IMG/VR virus record: IMGVR_UViG_3300023178_000038
Reading direction: 5' to 3' (one strand)
DNA: 20,000 nucleotides
DNA from: an uncultured virus (IMG/VR IMGVR_UViG_3300023178_000038)
Taxonomy: Duplodnaviria; Heunggongvirae; Uroviricota; Caudoviricetes
A program made the translations under genes and the position numbers. Each line of letters begins with the position of its first letter. Positions within the stretch are counted from its first letter, which is position 1. The notes under the pieces are model-generated. The model did no database searches. It was not told the DNA's origin and saw only the letters and a list, made by a program, of their open reading frames with translations. This document shows positions 8,168 through 17,586 of the stretch, in pieces.

Positions 8168-9908
8168 CTTGCACACCTCCTAAGAGTAATGATCTTATAT
8201 CTGGTGCAGGACCTTGTGGTACTGGTTGTCCACCGCCCATCATTTGATCGAGTAACGCAGCTTCACCTTCTGGTACTTCTGGTTCTTCTGCTGTATAAAA
8301 TTTATCTAGTATTGATTGCATAGAGTTAGGATTTTTATAAATCTGTACTAACGCCATTGTTGCTTTAGGATCACCTTGACTTGCTTGTACCTTTAATGTT
8401 TCAAACAAAGTACGTTCTGCTTCGTCTTTTAATATTCTGTCGTTAATCTTTTGTACATTATCAAGTCCGTCCATGTTTTCTTGTAATGTCTCTTTGTCAA
8501 TTATTCCTGCTTGCAATAACTGTAAACCAGAGACAATCTTTGTTGGCTCATCAAATCCTGCCATAACTCCATACACACGTCTAGTCTTGTACATACCTTG
8601 TATGTCTGTGCTAGGTGTATATTGTTCTGCATACGCTGTGCCTTTAAGATAACCTGCTAATGGTTTTTTCTTGTTACCATTTAATACTTCGTCCATCTCT
8701 AAACGTTTATAATCTAGTTCTTCTATTGCTGTTTTAAGTGCTAACTGATATTCTTTTACGTTTAGATCAACGGACGATAGTAACTCTTGTAATCCCCTAC
8801 CTGTAACAAATGAGTTAGGAGATATAGCGTCATCACTAACTGGATAGCTTGATCCAACACGAAGTTGTCGTTCTATCCTGTCTATCTGTTGAAACAACTG
8901 ATATGGAACATTGTTTGGTGGTTTAGCGACTTGTGAACCTGGTGTTAAATAGTTGACTGCAAATCTACCGCGTTTGTAGTTCCCACTCTCTAATTCACCA
9001 ATAATATTCGTTTCTGTGAATACGCTGTCTTCCATAGCAATTATGGACAAGACGTTAATCTTTGCCATAGCTGCCATCAAACCTAGTACATGGTCATACT
9101 GACCAGATAATCTATCAAAACTAAATCTTTTAGATATAACAAAACGTGGACCTGATTTAAGAGGATTAGGTGTAAAGTCTAGTATTTGTTTTTGTTCTGG
9201 TAAAAATACGTATGTACCATCTTCATCATAAAACTCTACAAGTTCTGTACCGTCAGCTAAATGATTATCCCAACTTCTTTGAAATCCGTCATGGTATTTA
9301 AACTTACTATAACCTGATGGGAACTGACTTGACTCATCAACCATAACTTGTGCTTGTGGGTACATCTGTTTAATAACAGCGTTAGGTACAAGTCTTATAA
9401 GTGCTAATTCTTTTGGATCTTGATCTGGTCCGTAATATCCTGGATAACAATCATAAGGATCACGTAGTTCTGCGTGTGGGTACATAATGCCATCTGGTGA
9501 CATCTTTTGTCTTATGATCCATACACAAAAACCATAACCAGGCAACCATCTAGCTGCTTGTGGTAACTGCATATCCATTTTAGAATTGCTATCTAAGTTA
9601 GTAACTATACGTTCTAACTTCTCTGCTTTGTTTTTAGCACGTTCGCTATCTGCGTAAGCGTCTACCTTTATGTCTGGCATACGTCCTAATTTTTGTGCTA
9701 AGTGTTCTAAACCTGAATTTATAAGATTAGGTATTGGTAAATCAATGTCGTAATTCTTTGCGCTCTCACCTAACAGTGCAGCAATACCATTGCTACCACC
9801 GTTCATAATGGATCTGACTCTATCACGATATTCATAGTGTCCACTATGTTCGTGCATTCCTTTTAGGTCGTCAGTCTTAATTAATAATTCGTCTGGGGTA
9901 TACACCAT
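8160..9908 (-). CDS. Portal (head-tail connector) protein, ~582 aa
   Basis: Directly follows TerL with a TAATG overlap at 9908. Size, the ELRDPYDCYP segment and the Pro/Gln/Gly-rich C-terminal tail fit podovirus-type portals. Confidence 0.8.
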   Translation of the reverse strand: MVYTPDELLIKTDDLKGMHEHSGHYEYRDRVRSIMNGGSNGIAALLGESAKNYDIDLPIPNLINSGLEHLAQKLGRMPDIKVDAYADSERAKNKAEKLERIVTNLDSNSKMDMQLPQAARWLPGYGFCVWIIRQKMSPDGIMYPHAELRDPYDCYPGYYGPDQDPKELALIRLVPNAVIKQMYPQAQVMVDESSQFPSGYSKFKYHDGFQRSWDNHLADGTELVEFYDEDGTYVFLPEQKQILDFTPNPLKSGPRFVISKRFSFDRLSGQYDHVLGLMAAMAKINVLSIIAMEDSVFTETNIIGELESGNYKRGRFAVNYLTPGSQVAKPPNNVPYQLFQQIDRIERQLRVGSSYPVSDDAISPNSFVTGRGLQELLSSVDLNVKEYQLALKTAIEELDYKRLEMDEVLNGNKKKPLAGYLKGTAYAEQYTPSTDIQGMYKTRRVYGVMAGFDEPTKIVSGLQLLQAGIIDKETLQENMDGLDNVQKINDRILKDEAERTLFETLKVQASQGDPKATMALVQIYKNPNSMQSILDKFYTAEEPEVPEGEAALLDQMMGGGQPVPQGPAPDIRSLLLGGVQGA

Positions 9909-11815
9909 TACCAAAAAACCTCGTTGTATTCACTTTGCTTATAATAGCTATATGAAGGAGTATAGTCGCTTTCTGCTTCAGCTAACATCATTTTTACATT
10001 GGTACGTATACGTTTCATTGGAAACCAACTTGCCATAACTAAGTCAGTTTTAGTTTTTACATTACGTGAATTACTTGCACCTGCTTGTGAAAAGTAAATT
10101 AACTGTTGTCTAAATATATTGACAAGTCTTTGTGTCTTAGAATCTGCATACGGTATGTTTATCTTTTCTTGTTCATACATACCTACCATACTGGTTACAC
10201 CAAATGTAGGATCCCATTTATTTTTATAAGTCTGGTGTCCTTCTATACGTACACCATGATTAGCAGCCCATAACTTTATATCTCTATCTTGACCAATAGC
10301 ACGTTGAAATCCATTTTCTTCTATGATCCAGTGACTTAACCAATACTTGTCATACCATTCCTTCATTAAGTTATGTGCTTTTTGTATACCACCACCTTGA
10401 TCGTTCTTCATATCTACAAGCCATACTTGTTGTGTTTTTACGTTATATGCCCAAAGAACTGCTGCCTGATAACCTGTACTAGCAGGATCGAGTCCTGCAA
10501 TAAGACTTGTGCCTGGTGGTATGTCTCCTAGCTTCCTTGATTTATCTAAACACTTATCAATCATCTCTGCTGTAAATAACTCCATACCTTGTGGTATAGC
10601 TTTGTTTAGATAGACCATCTCAAATATATTTCTACCACCTGTAGTCTCTGCTGCAGCTAACTGTTCCATTAACCATTTATGTGTACGTTTATTTGACCAT
10701 AACATGTGTTTTGTATGATCTATAGATTCGTCTTCTAGCGGTACTTCTAAATCATGCGCACGATCAACAATAGTTTCCCATGCTTTGTTTTCTAAGAGAT
10801 GATGGTAAAGATCGTCTGGGTGTTGTCTTGATCCAATAACGACCATTCCTGTATGTTCCTCTTTTCTTGACTGTAATGTTGTGGTCCACCAGTTCCTGGT
10901 GTTTTCTCTAGCACTTGGCTGCACAGTACTTCCATGATCTTCGATATCGTCTGCGATAATAAGGTCTGCGTCTCTGGAAAGGATCTTACCTCCTTTTCCA
11001 ATTGCGACAAGAGTTGGCGACTTAATACCAGAGACTGTTCTAGTTGCAACAGTAAATTGACTGGACGACCAACTCTTTCCACCTCTATTAGAAGGTCTAA
11101 ATCCGTCCCAGTCTCCGTAATCTTGTATGAGTCCTTCATTATTCTCCAAATGATCTAGTACCGCACCTACGGAGTTACGTGCAATGTCTTCGTTACCACC
11201 GCACCACATGATACGTATGTTAGGATTTTTACAAATCATGTATACGCAAAAGTGTGTAAGTAGATCTGTCTTACCATGTCTAGGCGGAGACAAGATCATT
11301 AACCGCTTACCGTGCTTTATACTATCTAAGATAGCACCAATCCACTTCTTTTGAAAGTCTGGTGTCTCATAATTTTTACCTTGTTCTGTTAAGAAATATT
11401 GATCACGAAACTCAACAAAAGAGTTTACGTCAGCTTGCAACTCGAAGGGGTCCCCACGCTTTTCGAGCTTTGCTTCTTTTTCTACATCTTCGAGATATGC
11501 TGCTACTGCACGTGACACTGTTGATGGACTGCAGCTTAATATGTTTGCTACTTCCTTCTTTGTCTTCTTACCTTCTAAAATGTCGTTAAAAAAATTTTTT
11601 TTCTTCATAATGGCGTAGTAATCTCCTCTACGCTTCTGTACATTCTCATCTACAGTCTTTTCTACCTGGATCTCTTTAGTAGGTTTGTTTGCACGCCACG
11701 CTCTCTGCCGTGTTCTTTTAGAACACCTCTCACTACAATACTTTTTACGACCTTCTGGTAAGGGGACTAAACAGTTGTCTGCTACGCAGATGGTGATTTT
11801 TTCATTATTTGACAT
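9908..11815 (-). CDS. terL: Terminase large subunit with N-terminal Zn-finger and HTH extension
   Basis: Walker A SPPRHGKT, Walker B LIIADDIED, coupling motif IGSRQHPDDL, RNase H-like nuclease motifs AGLDPAS, IIEENGFQ and DLVMASW. Confidence 0.95.
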   Translation of the reverse strand: MSNNEKITICVADNCLVPLPEGRKKYCSERCSKRTRQRAWRANKPTKEIQVEKTVDENVQKRRGDYYAIMKKKNFFNDILEGKKTKKEVANILSCSPSTVSRAVAAYLEDVEKEAKLEKRGDPFELQADVNSFVEFRDQYFLTEQGKNYETPDFQKKWIGAILDSIKHGKRLMILSPPRHGKTDLLTHFCVYMICKNPNIRIMWCGGNEDIARNSVGAVLDHLENNEGLIQDYGDWDGFRPSNRGGKSWSSSQFTVATRTVSGIKSPTLVAIGKGGKILSRDADLIIADDIEDHGSTVQPSARENTRNWWTTTLQSRKEEHTGMVVIGSRQHPDDLYHHLLENKAWETIVDRAHDLEVPLEDESIDHTKHMLWSNKRTHKWLMEQLAAAETTGGRNIFEMVYLNKAIPQGMELFTAEMIDKCLDKSRKLGDIPPGTSLIAGLDPASTGYQAAVLWAYNVKTQQVWLVDMKNDQGGGIQKAHNLMKEWYDKYWLSHWIIEENGFQRAIGQDRDIKLWAANHGVRIEGHQTYKNKWDPTFGVTSMVGMYEQEKINIPYADSKTQRLVNIFRQQLIYFSQAGASNSRNVKTKTDLVMASWFPMKRIRTNVKMMLAEAESDYTPSYSYYKQSEYNEVFW

Positions 11816-11819
11816 ATCT

Positions 11820-11840
11820 ATATGCTATAGTGTAGCATAT
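11820..11840 (-). promoter_or_regulatory. Palindrome containing a candidate extended -10 (TGcTACACT) just upstream of terL
   Basis: Inverted repeat ATATGCTA-tagtg-TAGCATAT. On the - strand TGCTACACT ends 13 nt before the terL ATG. No SD present. Confidence 0.4.
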
Positions 11841-11851
11841 CAGGATAAGCA

Positions 11852-11883
11852 TTGTGGTGTTCCTGCCTACACAAACACCACAA
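11852..11883. repeat. Perfect 10-bp inverted repeat (hairpin)
   Basis: TTGTGGTGTT-cctgcctacaca-AACACCACAA, flanked by GATAAG on both sides. Confidence 0.7.
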
Positions 11884-12066
11884 GATAAGGATTCGTTAAT
11901 AGGGTTGGCATAGCAGGACCGCCTTAGTCGTGGGTTGAGCCACATTCCTCACATTTTATTTATTAGAGAGAGAGCGCATTTACTGTTACTACACTTAATA
12001 AACTGGTTTGGGTTGGGAGTGACACAGGGATCGAACCACCTACTACTAGAACTCGACATATAAAGA

Positions 12067-12122
12067 GTACAATATATAGTACCACTACATATAGTACCTT
12101 TAGACTACACTATATATAGTAT
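12067..12122. promoter_or_regulatory. Three NrdR-box-like palindromes
   Basis: Cores CAATATATAG (12070), CTACATATAG (12085) and CTATATATAG (12110), each followed by TA. They match the NrdR consensus acaCwAtATaTwGtg. Confidence 0.5.
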
Positions 12123-12132
12123 ACTGTAGACT

Positions 12133-12209
12133 GGGGGTGATCTGGACAGGGTTAAATGCTTATCCAAATACTCATCTAACCAACGTGGGTTCGACTCCCA
12201 CCACCTCCA
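12133..12209 (+). ncRNA. Mini tmRNA-like / tRNA-Ala-like RNA (tRNA-like domain only)
   Basis: Acceptor stem GGGGGTG (12133-12139)/CACCTCC (12202-12208) with a G3.U pair; discriminator A 12209; T-arm GTGGG-TTCGACT-CCCAC. No D-stem. A central helix GGTTA.ATG/CAT.TAACC replaces the anticodon arm. Confidence 0.7.
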
Positions 12210-12480
12210 CAAATTGCCACATAAACATTGACGTATTCATCTATATTTTCTCCGCGCCGCGATTGAACTATGGGGGTTATATAATCATGTGTATATTGTG
12301 CGTGTGGTTGTGTTGCGCGGTGCTGCGGTTTGTAGTCGGTTTGTGTCGTACTGTCTCGATATGCGTTCGACAACTAGAACACCAGGCGCTGCTTTAAAAC
12401 TTCCAGGCGTACCTGGTTTTAAAATCATGATCTCCAATTATTTTTTTTTGCGGAGATCTAAATCTTTGCGCACGTGATAC

Positions 12481-12506
12481 AAAGAAAAAGCGGACCGAAG
12501 TCCGCT
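12481..12506 (-). terminator. Intrinsic terminator ending the early-type gene block
   Basis: - strand AGCGGAC-TTCG-GTCCGCT-TTTTCTTT (cUUCGg tetraloop plus U-tract), 25 nt after the stop at 12532. Confidence 0.9.
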
Positions 12507-12531
12507 CTCTCTCTTCCTGGTTATTAGTACG

Positions 12532-12870
12532 TTACGCTAAGGGCTGCGTGTCTCCAGGAACTAATTGCTTTTGTAAGTAATGAAGACTAACAAATATGTG
12601 ATTCGTGTCTTCCTGGTCAACGTGTAAATCTAGGTCACTGTCTAACCAAAGATAATTATTTGATTCCTCGCCGAAGGTCTCAATATAATGCTCTCGTTCT
12701 GTGTCATAACAATAATCTAACACGTGTCTAATTGCTGCATAGAGTTCATAATCTAAGCGGATAGTATTCTTGGCTTGATAACCTTTAGCAGCATAACCTG
12801 AAACAATCCAGGCAGTGCTAACAATCCACAATAGAATTAGAACACCAACGTAATTAATTTGCATATTCAT
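12532..12870 (-). CDS. Hypothetical protein with N-terminal transmembrane segment, 112 aa
   Basis: Hydrophobic VGVLILLWIVSTAWIVSGYAA; SD AGGAG upstream. Confidence 0.75.
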   Translation of the reverse strand: MNMQINYVGVLILLWIVSTAWIVSGYAAKGYQAKNTIRLDYELYAAIRHVLDYCYDTEREHYIETFGEESNNYLWLDSDLDLHVDQEDTNHIFVSLHYLQKQLVPGDTQPLA

Positions 12871-13060
12871 ATCTCCTATTTATTTTTTCCACTAGCTTAT
12901 TATATTTAACTCTTTGCTCTTCGTCTATAACAATTCTAATTTCTGTATCAAGAATCTGTATAGCTTTACCTACTCCCATGACTTGTTCAGCAATGGTTGT
13001 GTCAGCTTTGACTCCTTTGGCAAAATTTAAAAGTAATCTATAAACTTCGTTTCTATCCAT
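12854..13060 (-). CDS. Hypothetical protein, 68 aa
   Basis: Abuts the ardA stop; SD GAGGA upstream. Confidence 0.7.
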   Translation of the reverse strand: MDRNEVYRLLLNFAKGVKADTTIAEQVMGVGKAIQILDTEIRIVIDEEQRVKYNKLVEKINRRYEYAN

Positions 13061-13651
13061 TTATATTCCTCTCCACAAATATATTTTTCCGTTTACTTCT
13101 GCTCTTTGCATATCTATAAGCATATCGTGGCGCACTGTGGACCAATCAATATAATTATATAATCTATCTGTTTCGCTCACGTCATAGATTTCCATAAACT
13201 CATATTCCAGGTGCGTGTTCTGTTCGTCTATGTTGTCGAAGACCTGGACGGAGTCAGCAAATTCTTTGAACTGTTCGCTTGGCTCGTATTGTATGCCGCT
13301 ACCAAATTGTTGGAACTCATCTTGCATTAAATAAACTTCTTTAAACGCTTTGATGTAGTCAAAATTTGGGACCAGTTGCAGCAGCTCAACATATCCGTAT
13401 AATTCTTTTGCGGTCATGTACTCACCGCCGCCAAAATCATTATCTTGTATGTGAACTTCATCACCGCCACAAACAAATGGAGTTTTTGCTCTTCTGTGAA
13501 TCTCTTCCACGTCAAGCGCGCGCTCTATCTGTTCAAGCGTTGTGTCTTTGTTTATTTGGAACCAATAAAAAGTCAAGCGCCCTTGATTATAACAAGCAAG
13601 GCAGCCAGGACATATTTCTATAAAGTTCTTTGTCTCTGTTTGTTGTGTCAT
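13061..13651 (-). CDS. ardA: ArdA-family antirestriction protein (DNA mimic inhibiting type I RM)
   Basis: N-terminal GCLACYNQGRL..YWF, central DEVHIQDND..GEY, C-terminal YIDWSTVRHDM; strongly acidic; typical ArdA size. Confidence 0.85.
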   Translation of the reverse strand: MTQQTETKNFIEICPGCLACYNQGRLTFYWFQINKDTTLEQIERALDVEEIHRRAKTPFVCGGDEVHIQDNDFGGGEYMTAKELYGYVELLQLVPNFDYIKAFKEVYLMQDEFQQFGSGIQYEPSEQFKEFADSVQVFDNIDEQNTHLEYEFMEIYDVSETDRLYNYIDWSTVRHDMLIDMQRAEVNGKIYLWRGI

Positions 13652-13652
13652 C

Positions 13653-13841
13653 TTATCTTATTCCCTTCAAATAATCTCTAAACATTCTTTTTGATTCCTG
13701 GATAGAGTAACCAATATAAACTTGCTTTGTTGCGAAGTCTTCCGCGTCATGCAAGATAAGAGCGCCATTAACAACGTTCTTATATACTGATATTTTGTTT
13801 GTACTGTGTTTGTCTAATCTTTGGGGATATTCCCATATCAT
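13653..13841 (-). CDS. Hypothetical protein, 62 aa
   Basis: Strong SD AAGGAGGT and its own promoter upstream. Confidence 0.75.
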   Translation of the reverse strand: MIWEYPQRLDKHSTNKISVYKNVVNGALILHDAEDFATKQVYIGYSIQESKRMFRDYLKGIR

Positions 13842-13861
13842 AACAACCTCCTTCTAAATCA

Positions 13862-13889
13862 ATTTTACCTGGATTAATTAAGTAATCAA
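13862..13889 (-). promoter_or_regulatory. Sigma-70/SigA-type promoter for the ardA operon
   Basis: TTGATT (13889-13884)-16 nt-TAAAAT (13867-13862), between a terminator and an SD. Confidence 0.65.
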
Positions 13890-13895
13890 GAACAT

Positions 13896-13936
13896 AAAAA
13901 AAAAGCTGCAACAATTCGGCGCTGCAGCTCTTTTTT
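13896..13936 (-). terminator. Intrinsic terminator, possibly bidirectional
   Basis: - strand AGCTGCAGCG-ccgaat-TGTTGCAGCT followed by a T-run; a T-run also follows on the + strand. Confidence 0.8.
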
Positions 13937-13953
13937 ATTTTTACTTTAGATAT

Positions 13954-14160
13954 TTATATATCTTTTATTCTTTCCTTTATCTCTTCAATGTCTTCCTCCT
14001 GTATATATTCCCATAACGTATCTTTTATTTGTTCGTTCGCAATTCGTAGATCAATTTCTGTTTTCAATCGACCACGCAAAAGTGCGACTTCGTCACGACT
14101 TTGTCCTGTAATCTTTACGCCTTTGTATTCAAACAAAATCATAATGTCACTCCTATACAT
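13954..14160 (-). CDS. Hypothetical protein (~62-68 aa)
   Basis: In the coupled - strand operon; may start at the second ATG (14142), which has an AGGAG SD. Confidence 0.7.
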   Translation of the reverse strand: MYRSDIMILFEYKGVKITGQSRDEVALLRGRLKTEIDLRIANEQIKDTLWEYIQEEDIEEIKERIKDI

Positions 14161-17027: not shown

Positions 17028-17285
17028 CTATAACTGTAGCTGAATTTGATCTTCAAGTCTATTCAACAACTGTTGTTTTTTCTTCTGATCATTTAATTTA
17101 TACATGCTGACACCACCTCTGTGAGTGTGCATGTTGCACTTCTGACCTAAGATATAATCTTCGCCATGATCTGCACGTATCTCTGATATTCTATTGCGTG
17201 CTGACCAACCAAACTCTATAAGTTCTGTTGCACAATGCCACTTGTCATCATCAAGTAGCTGCAATATATCATCTCTCATTGTCAT
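17028..17285 (-). CDS. Winged helix-turn-helix DNA-binding protein, 85 aa
   Basis: ILQLLDD.KWH.ATEL....SARNRISEIR...YI...MYKL pattern of small phage wHTH proteins; SD AAGGAG. Confidence 0.7.
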   Translation of the reverse strand: MTMRDDILQLLDDDKWHCATELIEFGWSARNRISEIRADHGEDYILGQKCNMHTHRGGVSMYKLNDQKKKQQLLNRLEDQIQLQL

Positions 17286-17586
17286 TGTTATCTCCTTCTA
17301 CTTCATACCATTCGTATTTCAATGTTAATTCACTGCCCATAGGTATGTCAACGATCGTATATAAATAATATTTTCTATGATCTAAAACTTTTTTTAAGTT
17401 AGGTTTGTCACTATGATTTACAAAACCACCTAACGGTGTGCGTATTGTATCTAACGTAGGTGTGTCTATGATATGTGACATTCCTAAGTTCACACCTTTA
17501 TCTATATCTACTAATGTAAATAAACCTATGCCTTCTATCTTGCTTGGTTTAATTGTAAGGTAATCAGGTAAAGGTCTATATGTCAC
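17269..17586 (-). CDS. Stand-alone SET-domain protein (putative lysine methyltransferase)
   Basis: SKIEGIGLF...I.KG, FVNHSDKPN and DIPMGSELTLKY are the hallmark SET motifs. Confidence 0.9.
   Translation of the reverse strand: MTYRPLPDYLTIKPSKIEGIGLFTLVDIDKGVNLGMSHIIDTPTLDTIRTPLGGFVNHSDKPNLKKVLDHRKYYLYTIVDIPMGSELTLKYEWYEVEGDNNDNER

Follow-up and report, generated by a model that had tools for sequence, protein, structure and literature searches.

The window analysed here, a stretch of 20,000 nucleotides held in IMG/VR as a virus record, encodes a phage form of the tRNA-like domain (TLD) of tmRNA as a gene of its own, 77 nt long and with no message. The phage origin of the stretch is further evident from family matches to terL, portal, RusA and exonuclease genes. 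The TLD is inherited together with a second conserved RNA, here termed RNA X, and the two are joined by a covarying docking helix. Judged from sequence comparison, the reading with a probability of about one half is that the TLD is a functional phage gene, a tag-less tmRNA of the type carried by mycobacteriophage DS6A, which would block or bypass SsrA tagging with X docked to it.

Structure and detection of the element

The features of the element are as follows.

12133-12209, plus strand: TLD-only tmRNA-like RNA, mature body from G1 to the discriminator A77 (RF00023 at 44.7 bits, CM R1, covariation)
12133-12139, plus strand: 5' strand of the acceptor stem, GGGGGTG, pairing with CACCTCC at 12202-12208 in 7 bp that include G3.U70
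12140-12149, plus strand: stemless D-loop analogue, ATCTGGACAG (from the list of variants)
12150-12154, plus strand: 5' strand of the outer, P2-like central helix, GGTTA, pairing with TAACC at 12177-12181
12155-12165, plus strand: segment L, AATGCTTATCC, in the central loop of the TLD, the docking site for RNA X (9-12 bp duplex, covariation)
12185-12201, plus strand: T-arm, GTGGG TTCGACT CCCAC (100% paired; double changes in 3 of 5 pairs)
12210-12212, plus strand: 3' trailer CAA, which CCA would have to replace

The details given in the initial annotation, namely the acceptor stem with its G3.U pair, the T-arm, the unpaired D-region, the AAC linker and the encoded 3' end ACAA, are all present in the sequence, and the element does lie opposite the genes, being on the plus strand while every gene with a family match is on the minus strand. 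The discriminator A is position 12209, ATCTGGACA stands unpaired where a D-arm would be, and neither a tag frame nor an anticodon arm occurs inside 12133-12209. CCA is left unencoded at this 3' end and in 17 of the 18 variants of the TLD. Read by eye, the central helix is GGTTA.ATG / CAT.TAACC, and it was first described as a single helix; its outer part is present and covaries, whereas the inner three pairs (ATG/CAT) more likely contribute to pairing with a different RNA molecule.

The Rfam tmRNA model RF00023 aligns to the TLD from end to end (model positions 1-374; 44.7 bits, E 1.6e-16), with 34 nt replacing 301 model positions and none of the pseudoknots PK1-PK4 present in the alignment. 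This score falls short of the gathering cut-off of 47 that defines the tmRNA family, which is why a default Rfam scan is silent; the element is seen by Rfam solely under an E-value threshold, where tmRNA is its top match within the clan. The canonical cloverleaf that might have explained the element otherwise was looked for as well, and ARAGORN reports 0 genes and no tRNA-Ala with a D-arm and an anticodon arm. As a single sequence the TLD folds unremarkably (z -1.83; 7 of 200 shuffles fold equally well), and what places it far beyond chance is the model match together with its conservation and covariation in relatives. A candidate coding piece downstream, at 12273 (GGGGGTTA, a weak match to the permuted model), was rejected, as no D-loop features follow it, and a column scan finds no covarying helix from the downstream region to any other part.

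Conservation in related phages

Homologues and covariation, proposed at the outset as a check on the element, were both found. A regular-expression search places the TLD at the same position in 55 of 79 terL-relative loci, in 18 variants, and the CM R1 returns 56 matches, namely the window and the same 55 loci. The other 24 loci comprise 17 in which the sequence breaks off within 400 nt upstream of terL, one with a deletion and six in a distant group whose terL is 56% identical. In the L070/L325 contig the T-arm is without its 3' part and the acceptor strand is missing; unless this assembly is wrong, at least one assembly can dispense with the gene.

Over the whole TLD, 94.9% of the alignment cells are paired, against 43-55% when the partners are slid, and double changes occur at 9 of 21 pairs. 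The T-stem covaries on a plain MAFFT alignment too, by compensatory changes of GC to AU and of GC to CG. The nine-pair central helix is 88% paired, with double changes at six pairs as counted on the CM-fitted alignment; folds with segment L masked give heterogeneous minimum-energy structures, and the central helix therefore rests on this CM-fitted count. The D-loop analogue and T-loop change in concert, TGG accompanying TTCGA or TTCAA in nine variants and TAG accompanying TGCAA in the other nine; the G at T-loop position 55 in the latter half is unusual for a tRNA-like elbow.

Every helix of the TLD varies except the acceptor stem. All seven pairs of GGGGGUG/CACCUCC, G3.U70 included, are invariant in 18 of 18 variants (CM alignment A3), and so are A77 and C78. 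The alanine identity set, G3.U70 in a 7-bp acceptor stem with discriminator A, is thus intact throughout, and the initial annotation had read it correctly in the window element. The TLD is a real phage gene, and selection on its sequence appears to fall exactly where AlaRS reads, a pattern that points to charging with alanine.

A second conserved RNA docked to the TLD

Between the TLD and the divergent terL gene lies a further set of conserved features.

9908-11815, minus strand: terminase large subunit gene, the divergent neighbour of the RNA module (phrog_38, E 1e-66)
11820-11838, plus strand: promoter-like motif ATATGCTATAGTGTAGCAT before X, twin of the motif before the TLD and overlapping a sigma-70-like site (TTGACA, 18 nt, TAGCAT)
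11839-12110, plus strand: RNA X, a conserved structured RNA without a known family (both ends predicted; covarying hairpins)
11843-11853, plus strand: segment a, GGATAAGCATT, the predicted 5' end of X, pairing with segment L (duplex, covariation, scan)
11852-11883, plus strand: hairpin hp1 of X, a 10-bp stem with the loop TCCTGCCTACAC in the window (100% paired; double changes in 7 of 10 pairs)
11902-11924, plus strand: hairpin hpA of X, GGGTTGG / CCGCCT, with the loop CATAGCAGGA (97% paired)
11930-11943, plus strand: hairpin hp2 of X, GTGG GTTGAG CCAC (100% paired; double changes in 3 of 4 pairs)
11976-12030, plus strand: nearly invariant block of X, GTTACTACACTTAATAAACTGGTTTGGGTTGGGAGTGACACAGGG (alignment A5; 59 stretches in a pattern scan)
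12114-12132, plus strand: promoter-like motif ATATAGTATACTGTAGACT before the TLD, with a -10-like TATACT ending 7 nt before G1 (conservation)

RNA X is about 270 nt long, and its hairpins contain many G.U pairs and are possible on the plus strand alone. Compensatory changes are seen in hp2 (GTGG/CCAC in some variants, GTCC/GGAC in others), and at one pair of hpA 12 variants have GC and 6 have UA, while CCTGCCT in the hp1 loop is invariant in 18 of 18. An AU helix between 11959-11965 and 11996-12002 is a further candidate within X. The invariant core of X occurs in 59 IMG/VR stretches, and the TLD accompanies it in 55 of them; of the four exceptions, three are truncated at a contig end and one carries a deletion. 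The two RNAs are thus co-inherited. The -10-like element before the TLD is kept as TATACT, TACAAT or TATAAT, preceded by TGn in some variants, and sites of the promoter-like motif lie before X and before the TLD alone in the window and three complete relatives, with one extra site in G001.

The pairing partner of the TLD loop lies about 290 nt upstream. Segment L and segment a form a duplex of 9-12 bp in all 18 variants (-13.8 to -18.7 kcal/mol), whereas shuffled X segments average -3.6 to -6.8 kcal/mol against segment L; the observed energy is matched by 0 of 300 shuffles in 17 variants and by 1 of 300 in L020. Pairing between non-cognate variant classes is far weaker. When the sequences are aligned with plain MAFFT, 89.5% of the helix is paired and 3 of its 9 pairs covary, and the helix also emerges from an unbiased scan of every column of the 725-nt intergenic region against every other. 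The initial annotation missed this docking helix, by which the loop of the element pairs with the 5' end of X; the element does not stand alone. A second contact, from the TLD junction (CAGGG or GCAG) to the hp1 loop, was rejected as unsupported, being 4 nt only with registers that shift.

The position of this helix invites another interpretation, in which X is the body of a split tmRNA, possibly with a template, tethered non-covalently to a complete TLD through segments a and L, and the pair carries out trans-translation itself with a short, altered or absent tag. This would constitute a third tmRNA architecture, a complete TLD and a separately transcribed body joined by a loop-docking helix alone and leaving a minimal tag or none on stalled chains. 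It is unlikely, at perhaps one chance in five, yet several features agree with it. The docking helix continues the 5' strand of the central helix, the site at which the body of a normal tmRNA is attached; X and the TLD together amount to about 350 nt, against 374 positions in RF00023; X has several covarying hairpins; and the permuted-tmRNA model maps the TLD interior to the trans-pairing strands of an acceptor piece (20.5 bits, E 0.03). The hp1 loop TCCTGC is complementary to the hpA loop GCAGGA, and a pseudoknot is possible, though its pairs are invariant and show no covariation. The hp2 loop holds a stop codon in the frame GTG GGT TGA, two sense codons and a stop, in 14 of 18 variants, and tags of two residues occur in bacteria according to passages of PMC11915505.

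That frame, however, has no stop in the other four variants (L016, L035, L050, L062), a second frame ending at a conserved TAG fails in two or three, and no frame in X is conserved across 18 of 18; the changes in hp2 keep the hairpin and not the peptide. Neither of the two known tmRNA gene forms has this gene order. The idea that X is a tmRNA body that has diverged was rejected, with no Rfam match at E up to 10 and, against 80 full-length ssrA loci, a best blastn E of 0.92 and nothing from nhmmer.

Genomic setting and transcripts

Parts of 11000-13000 are contained in 22 sequencing runs, and metatranscriptome contigs cover 11893-12195 (run X1), 11993-12145 (run X2) and 11872-12070 (run X3). 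The four metatranscriptomes were examined as contigs, from which strand, ends and level are not readable and in which DNA carry-over is possible; the depth of these contigs over X and the TLD is no higher than over adjacent genes. A 293-nt contig in run X2 and a loose-end pair with the same flank in run X3 share just 12183-12213 with the window and probably derive from a bacterial ssrA.

These contigs bear on a reading in which the TLD stays uncharged and off the ribosome and acts as a tRNA-like processing or stability module (by offering RNase P or RNase Z a place to cut, by carrying a CCA tag or by shielding the 3' end) for X or for a long plus-strand transcript, with X as the effector, acting for instance in antisense on the leader of the divergent late gene terL. 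X could be the real effector, lying directly upstream on the same strand and pairing with the TLD; the T-loop is non-canonical in half of the variants; and one RNA-library contig (run X1, record 2) spans the hp1 region into the TLD, as co-transcription would allow, although it has neither strand nor ends and may be DNA. A processing signal, however, needs pairing and not a fixed sequence, whereas the acceptor stem, the discriminator A and the C after it are the same in each of the 18 variants, against covariation in the T-stem, the central helix, hp1, hp2 and the docking helix alike. The TLD moreover has its own -10-like element, twin of that of X, and this suggests separate transcripts. Such a module is doubtful, slightly more so than a split tmRNA.

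The last 28 nt of the TLD, save CAA for CCA, are the 3' end of ssrA in several phyla, and this 28-nt end occurs in at least 120 genome-contig stretches. The bacterial loci fetched were full-length ssrA with CCA in 80 of 80 cases and the mini form in none, with GGGGGTG 322-379 nt upstream wherever the flank sufficed; they belong to Halanaerobium, Opitutae/Verrucomicrobiota, Acidobacteriota, Geobacterales and Clostridia, and the match therefore names no host. Blastn of the 80-nt element against phages gave T-arm matches in tRNA and tmRNA genes only, a megablast search of cultured phages with 9900-14000 found nothing, and a search for an SmpB gene in the phage found none.

The shared 3' end could also belong to an attP site or to a captured fragment of host ssrA, and the 11-bp inverted repeat at 11843-11853 and 12155-12165 could flank an invertible segment. 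In variants of the L020 type divergence has spared these 28 nt but not the remainder of the element, and an inverted repeat would remain matched in DNA as well as in RNA. These readings at the level of DNA are nevertheless very improbable. No tyrosine (PF00589) or serine (PF00239) recombinase is found in any of five records (G000 and four relatives at least 96% complete), and an attP site has no need of the 5' strand of the acceptor stem, the D-loop analogue or the central helix, which are conserved and covary; the T-stem variants are compensatory. The attP explanation that the initial annotation had set against its own proposal thus fails. The orientation and spacing of the X core and TLD are constant in 55 of 55 loci, where no inverted isoform is seen, the two positions at which the repeat is mismatched are G.U wobbles when read as plus-strand RNA, and the 80 bacterial loci are all full-length, with no mini form among them.

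Relationship to known tmRNAs

According to passages of two papers, mycobacteriophage DS6A carries a "TLD only" (CDS-less) tmRNA (PMC4131195, PMC11915505), so the initial annotation's remark that no phage RNA of this form had been described does not hold. With a tmRNA match at both ends, no body between them and a phage as its source, the window element belongs to the same TLD-only class. The DS6A gene is located at JN698994.1:28478-28560, where RF00023 aligns end to end, and is entry tmID 11587 of the tmRNA Website. Both RNAs are phage-encoded, about 80 nt long and stripped of the whole tmRNA body, scoring 43.2 bits in DS6A and 44.7 in the window, each under the cut-off; both have an acceptor stem with G3.U70, a stemless D-loop, a short central helix and a T-arm; and both lack CCA at the 3' end (ACTA in DS6A, ACAA in the window) and are missed by ARAGORN. 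The lineages are unrelated, the best cultured-phage match of the window's terL being 27% identical, and DS6A is temperate with a tyrosine integrase, whereas the family of the window has no integrase. In the window TLD a large loop stays open and is paired with a second RNA, a partner looked for in the window's family alone, while the flanks of the central helix typical of tmRNA are better preserved in DS6A. The TLD-only form is thus already known, and the partner RNA is the new part of the system.

The one-piece tmRNAs of RF00023 share with the window element the TLD architecture and alanine identity set, as well as a T-arm and 3' acceptor strand that, CCA excepted, are identical over 28 nt to ssrA of several phyla. 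Unlike them, the window gene has neither pseudoknots nor a tag frame, and the sequence next to the central helix, UUCGAC (5') and GGAC (3') in the Rfam consensus, is degenerate in the window (GGACAGGG and CCAAC), so that SmpB binding is not readable from the sequence.

Two-piece tmRNAs with permuted genes (RF04321) are known from Alphaproteobacteria, from cyanobacteria and from marine phages, Melnitz among them (PMC9004378). They consist of two RNAs held by base-pairing near the T-arm strands, as X and the TLD would be, and their model aligns weakly to the TLD interior, at 20.5-23 bits against a cut-off of 47. The permuted gene order, acceptor piece before coding piece, is not that of the window, where one RNA provides the whole TLD and both acceptor strands and the partner is encoded upstream and not downstream. 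That partner docks through one loop helix only, and the window system has no established tag frame.

The jakobid and oomycete mitochondrial tmRNAs (RF02544) are message-less. Message-less plastid forms of about 65 bp in Mallomonadaceae are described in passages of PMC11915505. All of these resemble the window element in keeping the TLD while the tag reading frame is gone, and differ in being organellar, with imported SmpB and, in mitochondria, usually permuted genes. RF02544 is not among the Rfam matches to the TLD in scans that hide lower-scoring matches of the same clan.

Proposed function

The preferred reading, a functional DS6A-type gene, can be set out as a series of steps. The TLD would be transcribed from the plus strand by means of its own -10-like element, with a start at or next to G1. 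Host enzymes would trim its 3' end and add CCA, and host AlaRS would then charge it with alanine through G3.U70 and A73. SmpB and EF-Tu may bring the charged RNA to stalled ribosomes, as they do with the TLD of tmRNA. Since it contains no reading frame, the TLD would compete there with host tmRNA, and SsrA tagging would likely be blocked or bypassed during infection. A molecule similar to that of DS6A is a strong inhibitor of tmRNA in E. coli, an effect that may come from titration of SmpB, according to PMC4131195 and PMC11915505 (citing Mao et al. 2009), and the isolated TLD is described in PMC3895274 (citing Shimizu and Ueda 2006) as capable of peptidyl transfer in vitro.

Eleven nucleotides of the central loop are predicted to pair with the 5' end of X, so that the active species would probably be a complex of two RNAs. 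X would hang from the end of the central helix, where a normal tmRNA attaches its pseudoknot and message body. The covarying docking helix suggests that the mini-tmRNA probably works jointly with the second conserved RNA, and together the TLD and X hint at a two-part RNA device aimed at ribosome rescue in the host.

Significance

To our knowledge, TLD-only tmRNAs are known from one cultured phage, DS6A, and a handful of database entries, and a generic pattern scan for the TLD-only form returns at least 120 IMG/VR stretches. The 18 natural variants described here, with their compensatory changes, define the structure of a mini-tmRNA and provide an unusually clean handle on it. The family makes the function of phage mini-tmRNAs approachable by experiment, through complex formation, alanylation, competition for SmpB and tagging. 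Should X and the TLD prove to be a split tmRNA, they would represent a new gene form for a molecule thought to have only three, and as a third tmRNA architecture they would provide a phage-owned ribosome-rescue RNA that finishes stalled chains with a minimal tag or none where the host would add its degradation tag. Trans-translation in the host is also a plausible target of phage control, and this side of the conflict between phages and their hosts has been explored little.

Genomic setting

The window is taken, in reversed orientation, from an IMG/VR virus record of 30,077 bases (estimated completeness 70%), of which it covers the first 19,996. Its genes are encoded on the minus strand, while the element discussed here, a tRNA-like domain (TLD) of the tmRNA type, lies on the plus strand. 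No close cultured phage was found by megablast, and the best match to the terminase large subunit (terL) among cultured phages, from Streptomyces phages, reaches 26.8% identity.

Features of the window
9908-11815, minus strand: terL (phrog_38, E 1e-66)
window, minus strand: portal protein (weak match)
window, minus strand: RusA (family match)
window, minus strand: exonuclease (family match)
13061-13651, minus strand: ArdA antirestriction protein, among the early genes (PF07275, E 6.5e-7)
17269-17586, minus strand: small SET-domain protein, among the early genes (PF00856, E 1e-7)

The TLD occupies a 716-nt gap bounded on one side by terL and on the other by the preceding minus-strand operon, which closes with a good minus-strand terminator at hairpin 12489-12506. 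Read on the minus strand, this hairpin is AGCGGAC CGAA GTCCGCT followed by a T-run; it is likely the terminator of the operon ending at 12532, and terL would therefore need its own promoter or read-through.

A tRNA-like domain of tmRNA ancestry

The plus strand at 12133-12212 reads GGGGGTG ATCTGGACA GGGTTAAATG CTTATCCAAATACT CATCTAACC AAC GTGGG TTCGACT CCCAC CACCTCC A CAA, and bears every feature listed in the initial annotation, which had described a message-less alanine TLD with a G3.U acceptor stem, discriminator A, T-arm, stemless D-loop, central helix and three-nucleotide linker. ARAGORN reports no tRNA or tmRNA in the window; a canonical cloverleaf was not found and a canonical tRNA identity is rejected. 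An Rfam scan of the window at gathering thresholds likewise reported nothing. With an E-value threshold instead, the element is matched over the full length of the tmRNA model RF00023 at 44.7 bits (E 1.6e-16, with the same result on repetition), below its cut-off of 47 bits, with 301 model positions replaced by 34 nt. Because the single-sequence fold is unexceptional (z -1.83; 7 of 200 shuffles equally good), the case for the TLD rests on this model match together with comparative data.

The 28-nt 3' end of the TLD, CCA excepted, is identical to that of full-length ssrA genes from at least five phyla among the matches listed, and full-length ssrA is present at all 80 bacterial loci examined among these matches. 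At the level of sequence, this identity shows a tmRNA ancestry of the element and points to no particular host. The initial annotation had also named an attP site, recognizable by an integrase and conservation of the 3' half only, as a competing identity. No match to PF00589 or PF00239 turned up in the virus's own record or in four relatives of 96-100% completeness, and conservation and covariation extend to the 5' half, so an attP site is rejected. Readings that place the function of the element in the DNA itself are highly improbable.

Conservation and covariation

Among 79 viral loci drawn from terL relatives, a regular expression for the two acceptor strands locates the TLD in 55, on the strand opposite terL and in 18 distinct variants, and a covariance model built from 8 variants recovers the same 55 loci and the window at 44.9-108.3 bits. 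The 24 loci lacking the element fall into three sets: 17 offer less than 400 nt upstream of terL; six form a group with 56% terL identity and coding sequence in the upstream position; and one (L070 = L325, an IMG/VR contig) has lost ~40 nt, comprising the 3' T-stem strand, the acceptor strand and some of the following conserved block, either a natural loss or an assembly error.

In the model-fitted alignment, 94.9% of TLD cells are paired, compared to 43-55% with the partners slid, and 9 of 21 pairs have changed on both sides. The T-stem is fully paired (100%) through the alternatives GC/CG/UA, UA/CG and GC/AU, also on a plain MAFFT alignment. The central helix is 88% paired with 6 of 9 pairs covarying, as counted on the model-fitted alignment. 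Its inner ATG/CAT pairs, drawn in the initial annotation, compete with a docking helix (see below) and are impossible in L033-type variants. The anticipated alternative of a decaying relic is rejected because compensatory changes maintain every helix; the element is a conserved gene for a structured RNA that carries a TLD of the tmRNA type.

All seven acceptor pairs, including G3.U70, are unchanged in the 18 variants, as are the discriminator A and the C that follows it. This alanine identity set is thus under sequence-level constraint. With a G3.U70 pair, even minihelices are substrates of AlaRS. Beyond the discriminator, the 3' end reads CAA in 12 variants, CTG in four, and CCA and CTT in one each; as the two bases after the conserved C vary, CCA would have to be added after transcription. 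In every variant, a -10-like hexamer (TATACT, TACAAT or TATAAT, with TGn in front in some cases) stops 6-7 nt short of G1, a spacing that points to the mature 5' end as the transcription start. At the elbow, a D-loop TGG co-occurs with T-loop TTCGA or TTCAA in nine variants and TAG with TGCAA in the other nine, which could be tertiary covariation at positions 18 and 55 or may be the trace of one single event.

RNA X and the docking helix

Upstream of the TLD, at ~11839-12110 (predicted ends), lies X, a structured plus-strand RNA whose hairpins contain many G.U pairs, which on the minus strand would become A.C.

Features of X
11852-11883, plus strand: hairpin hp1, 100% paired, 7 of 10 pairs covarying
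11902-11924, plus strand: hairpin hpA
11930-11943, plus strand: hairpin hp2, 3 of 4 pairs covarying
plus strand: near-invariant block of 55 nt in the variant alignment

Fifty-nine IMG/VR stretches contain the core of X, and in 55 of them the TLD follows downstream in the same orientation; of the remaining four, three are cut off by contig ends and one is the L070 deletion. The promoter-like motif of the TLD has one twin, immediately 5' of X (11820-11838) and overlapping a sigma-70-like site (TTGACA-18-TAGCAT), and apart from one extra match the motif is confined to these two places in the window and three complete relatives. X has no Rfam match at E values up to 10 and no similarity to the 80 ssrA loci.

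The central loop of the TLD carries AATGCTTATCC (12155-12165), the reverse complement of GGATAAGCATT at 11843-11853, ~300 nt upstream on the same strand and a few bases from the predicted start of X. A duplex of 9-12 bp between the upstream segment and its own TLD interior is predicted in all 18 variants, at -13.8 to -18.7 kcal/mol compared to means of -3.6 to -6.8 for shuffled segments; the observed energy is reached by 0 of 300 shuffles in 17 variants and by 1 of 300 in L020. Both sides change together (GGATAAGC/GCTTATCC, GGGATAAG/CTTATCCC, GGAACAAAC/GTTTGTTCC), with a G.U pair in GGAACAAGC/GTTTGTTCC, a U.G pair in GGGATAAC/GTTGTCCC and an additional CAG/CTG in L031. Non-cognate duplexes are much weaker: an L033-type segment reaches -3.4 with the window-type TLD, and that of L068 -15.6 with its own TLD versus -5.0 to -9.9 with others.

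In a plain MAFFT alignment covering 11839-12212, the docking helix is 89.5% paired, despite L020 and L068 being one column off, and 3 of its 9 pairs are doubly changed. On the same type of alignment, the complete seven-helix structure is 97.0% paired versus 46-51% when slid, with 17 of 42 pairs doubly changed and a score reached by 0 of 500 shuffles, a significance that such shuffle controls overstate because the 18 variants are mutually related. An unbiased all-against-all column scan of the 725-nt intergenic alignment recovers the docking helix, and the only other long or multiply covarying helices in it are hp1, hp2, part of hpA and the T-stem. Covariation and predicted duplexes together establish a conserved docking helix between X and the TLD, with the U25-A pair to X retained in all 18 variants. 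As the pairing segment directly adjoins the 5' strand of the central helix, X would hang from the helix end, the site of the body in a normal tmRNA.

This position raises the reading that X turns the TLD into a true split tmRNA. A loop-loop pseudoknot is suggested by 6 nt of complementarity between the loops of hp1 and hpA, a pairing that is invariant and hence does not covary. TAGTC (11925-11929) is followed by hp2 with a stop codon in its loop; in E. coli tmRNA, a similar short motif lies ahead of the resume codon. Two sense codons and a stop are found in 14 of 18 variants (not in L016, L035, L050 or L062), and a longer frame ending at a conserved TAG is also broken in some variants. The complementarity and the short frame are hints of a tmRNA-like layout rather than evidence, and a split tmRNA is considered unlikely. 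Slightly less credence is given to the docked TLD serving only as a processing or stability handle for X.

Two further observations concern X. TTTATTA (11959-11965) in one loop is complementary to TAATAAA (11996-12002) in another. This A/U-only helix of 7 bp, for which the unbiased scan gives one covarying pair, is a possible internal pseudoknot. Furthermore, GGGAGTGACACAGGGATCGAAC (12017-12040) resembles the TLD 5' end GGGGGTGATCTGGAC; its GGGAGTGAC part is invariant and the remainder conserved in the window group only, and the likeness could be a duplication relic, an alternative pairing partner or chance.

Downstream region and transcript data

Directly behind the TLD, a block of ~40 nt (12213-12255, AAATTGCCACATAAACATTGACGTATTCATCTATATTTT) is better conserved than the TLD interior in all 18 variants, among which it has no covariation; it may act at the DNA level or bind a protein, for instance as a late promoter or packaging signal. 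TATGGGGGTTA (12268-12283), conserved in 17 of 18 variants, is weakly matched (23 bits, E 0.011) by a permuted-tmRNA model, which takes it for a second 5' acceptor strand; D-loop features are missing after it, and the unbiased scan gave no covarying helix to any region. The G/T-rich plus strand at 12285-12400 varies in sequence and is constant in composition; its end is marked by a conserved ATGCGTTCG-like motif together with a hairpin and subsequent T-run (CCAGGCGTACCTGGTTTT, ~12403-12420). Six related contigs (L006, L022, L029, L032, L034 and L048) end 508-607 nt upstream of terL (~12320-12420 in the window), a position close to the RNA module that might be a true genome terminus or a point where assemblies break.

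Parts of 11000-13000 occur in 16 runs recorded as RNA, four of which were examined as contigs. Pieces spanning X and the 5' two-thirds of the TLD have a depth of 2-5, not above flanking genes, and as contigs reveal neither strand, ends nor transcription. In two freshwater metatranscriptomes, a 293-nt contig (run X2, depth 13) over 12183-12213 and a loose-end pair with the same flanks (run X3) match the window only over the 31-nt T-arm and acceptor stretch, with unrelated flanks; these are probably bacterial ssrA with the same 3' end.

Related RNAs and proposed function

The TLD-only form itself is already known, and the initial claim that no such phage RNA had been described proves wrong. Hudson, Lau and Williams (2014; PMC4131195) list 'Mycobacterium phage DS6A (TLD only)' and, with reference to Mao et al. 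2009, describe strong inhibition of tmRNA by a similar molecule, perhaps through SmpB titration; in the 2025 tmRNA database paper (PMC11915505), the DS6A statement recurs, and of 97,179 sequences 9 are classed as 'Standard, no CDS'. The DS6A element was located at JN698994.1:28478-28560 with 3' end ACTA and, like the window TLD, aligns to RF00023 end to end (43.2 vs 44.7 bits). No further papers on phage TLD-only forms were found in the literature searched.

Short elements that resemble TLD-only RNAs and differ widely in sequence are common in IMG/VR, where a generic pattern occurs in at least 120 stretches. Among the matches listed (80 loci, L084-L163), ARAGORN places a tRNA call over 11 and none over the other 69, a non-overlapping tRNA gene lies within 150 nt of 10, and a small internal hairpin between A-rich runs recurs in many. 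When 20 loci were picked for comparison to Rfam, 15 matched RF00023 at E up to 0.01, three of these above the cut-off.

The proposed function is that the TLD RNA would gain a CCA tail, be alanylated, be carried by SmpB and EF-Tu to stalled ribosomes and there, with X attached, compete with host tmRNA. This reading is given a probability of about 0.5, with the weight left over by the readings already discussed falling to some other explanation. An isolated TLD supports peptidyl transfer in vitro (PMC3895274), and inhibition of tmRNA in E. coli is described for a DS6A-like TLD-only RNA (PMC4131195, PMC11915505). Relative to the literature searched, what is new is the occurrence in this phage family, the covariation record and, above all, the covarying docking of the TLD to a partner RNA.
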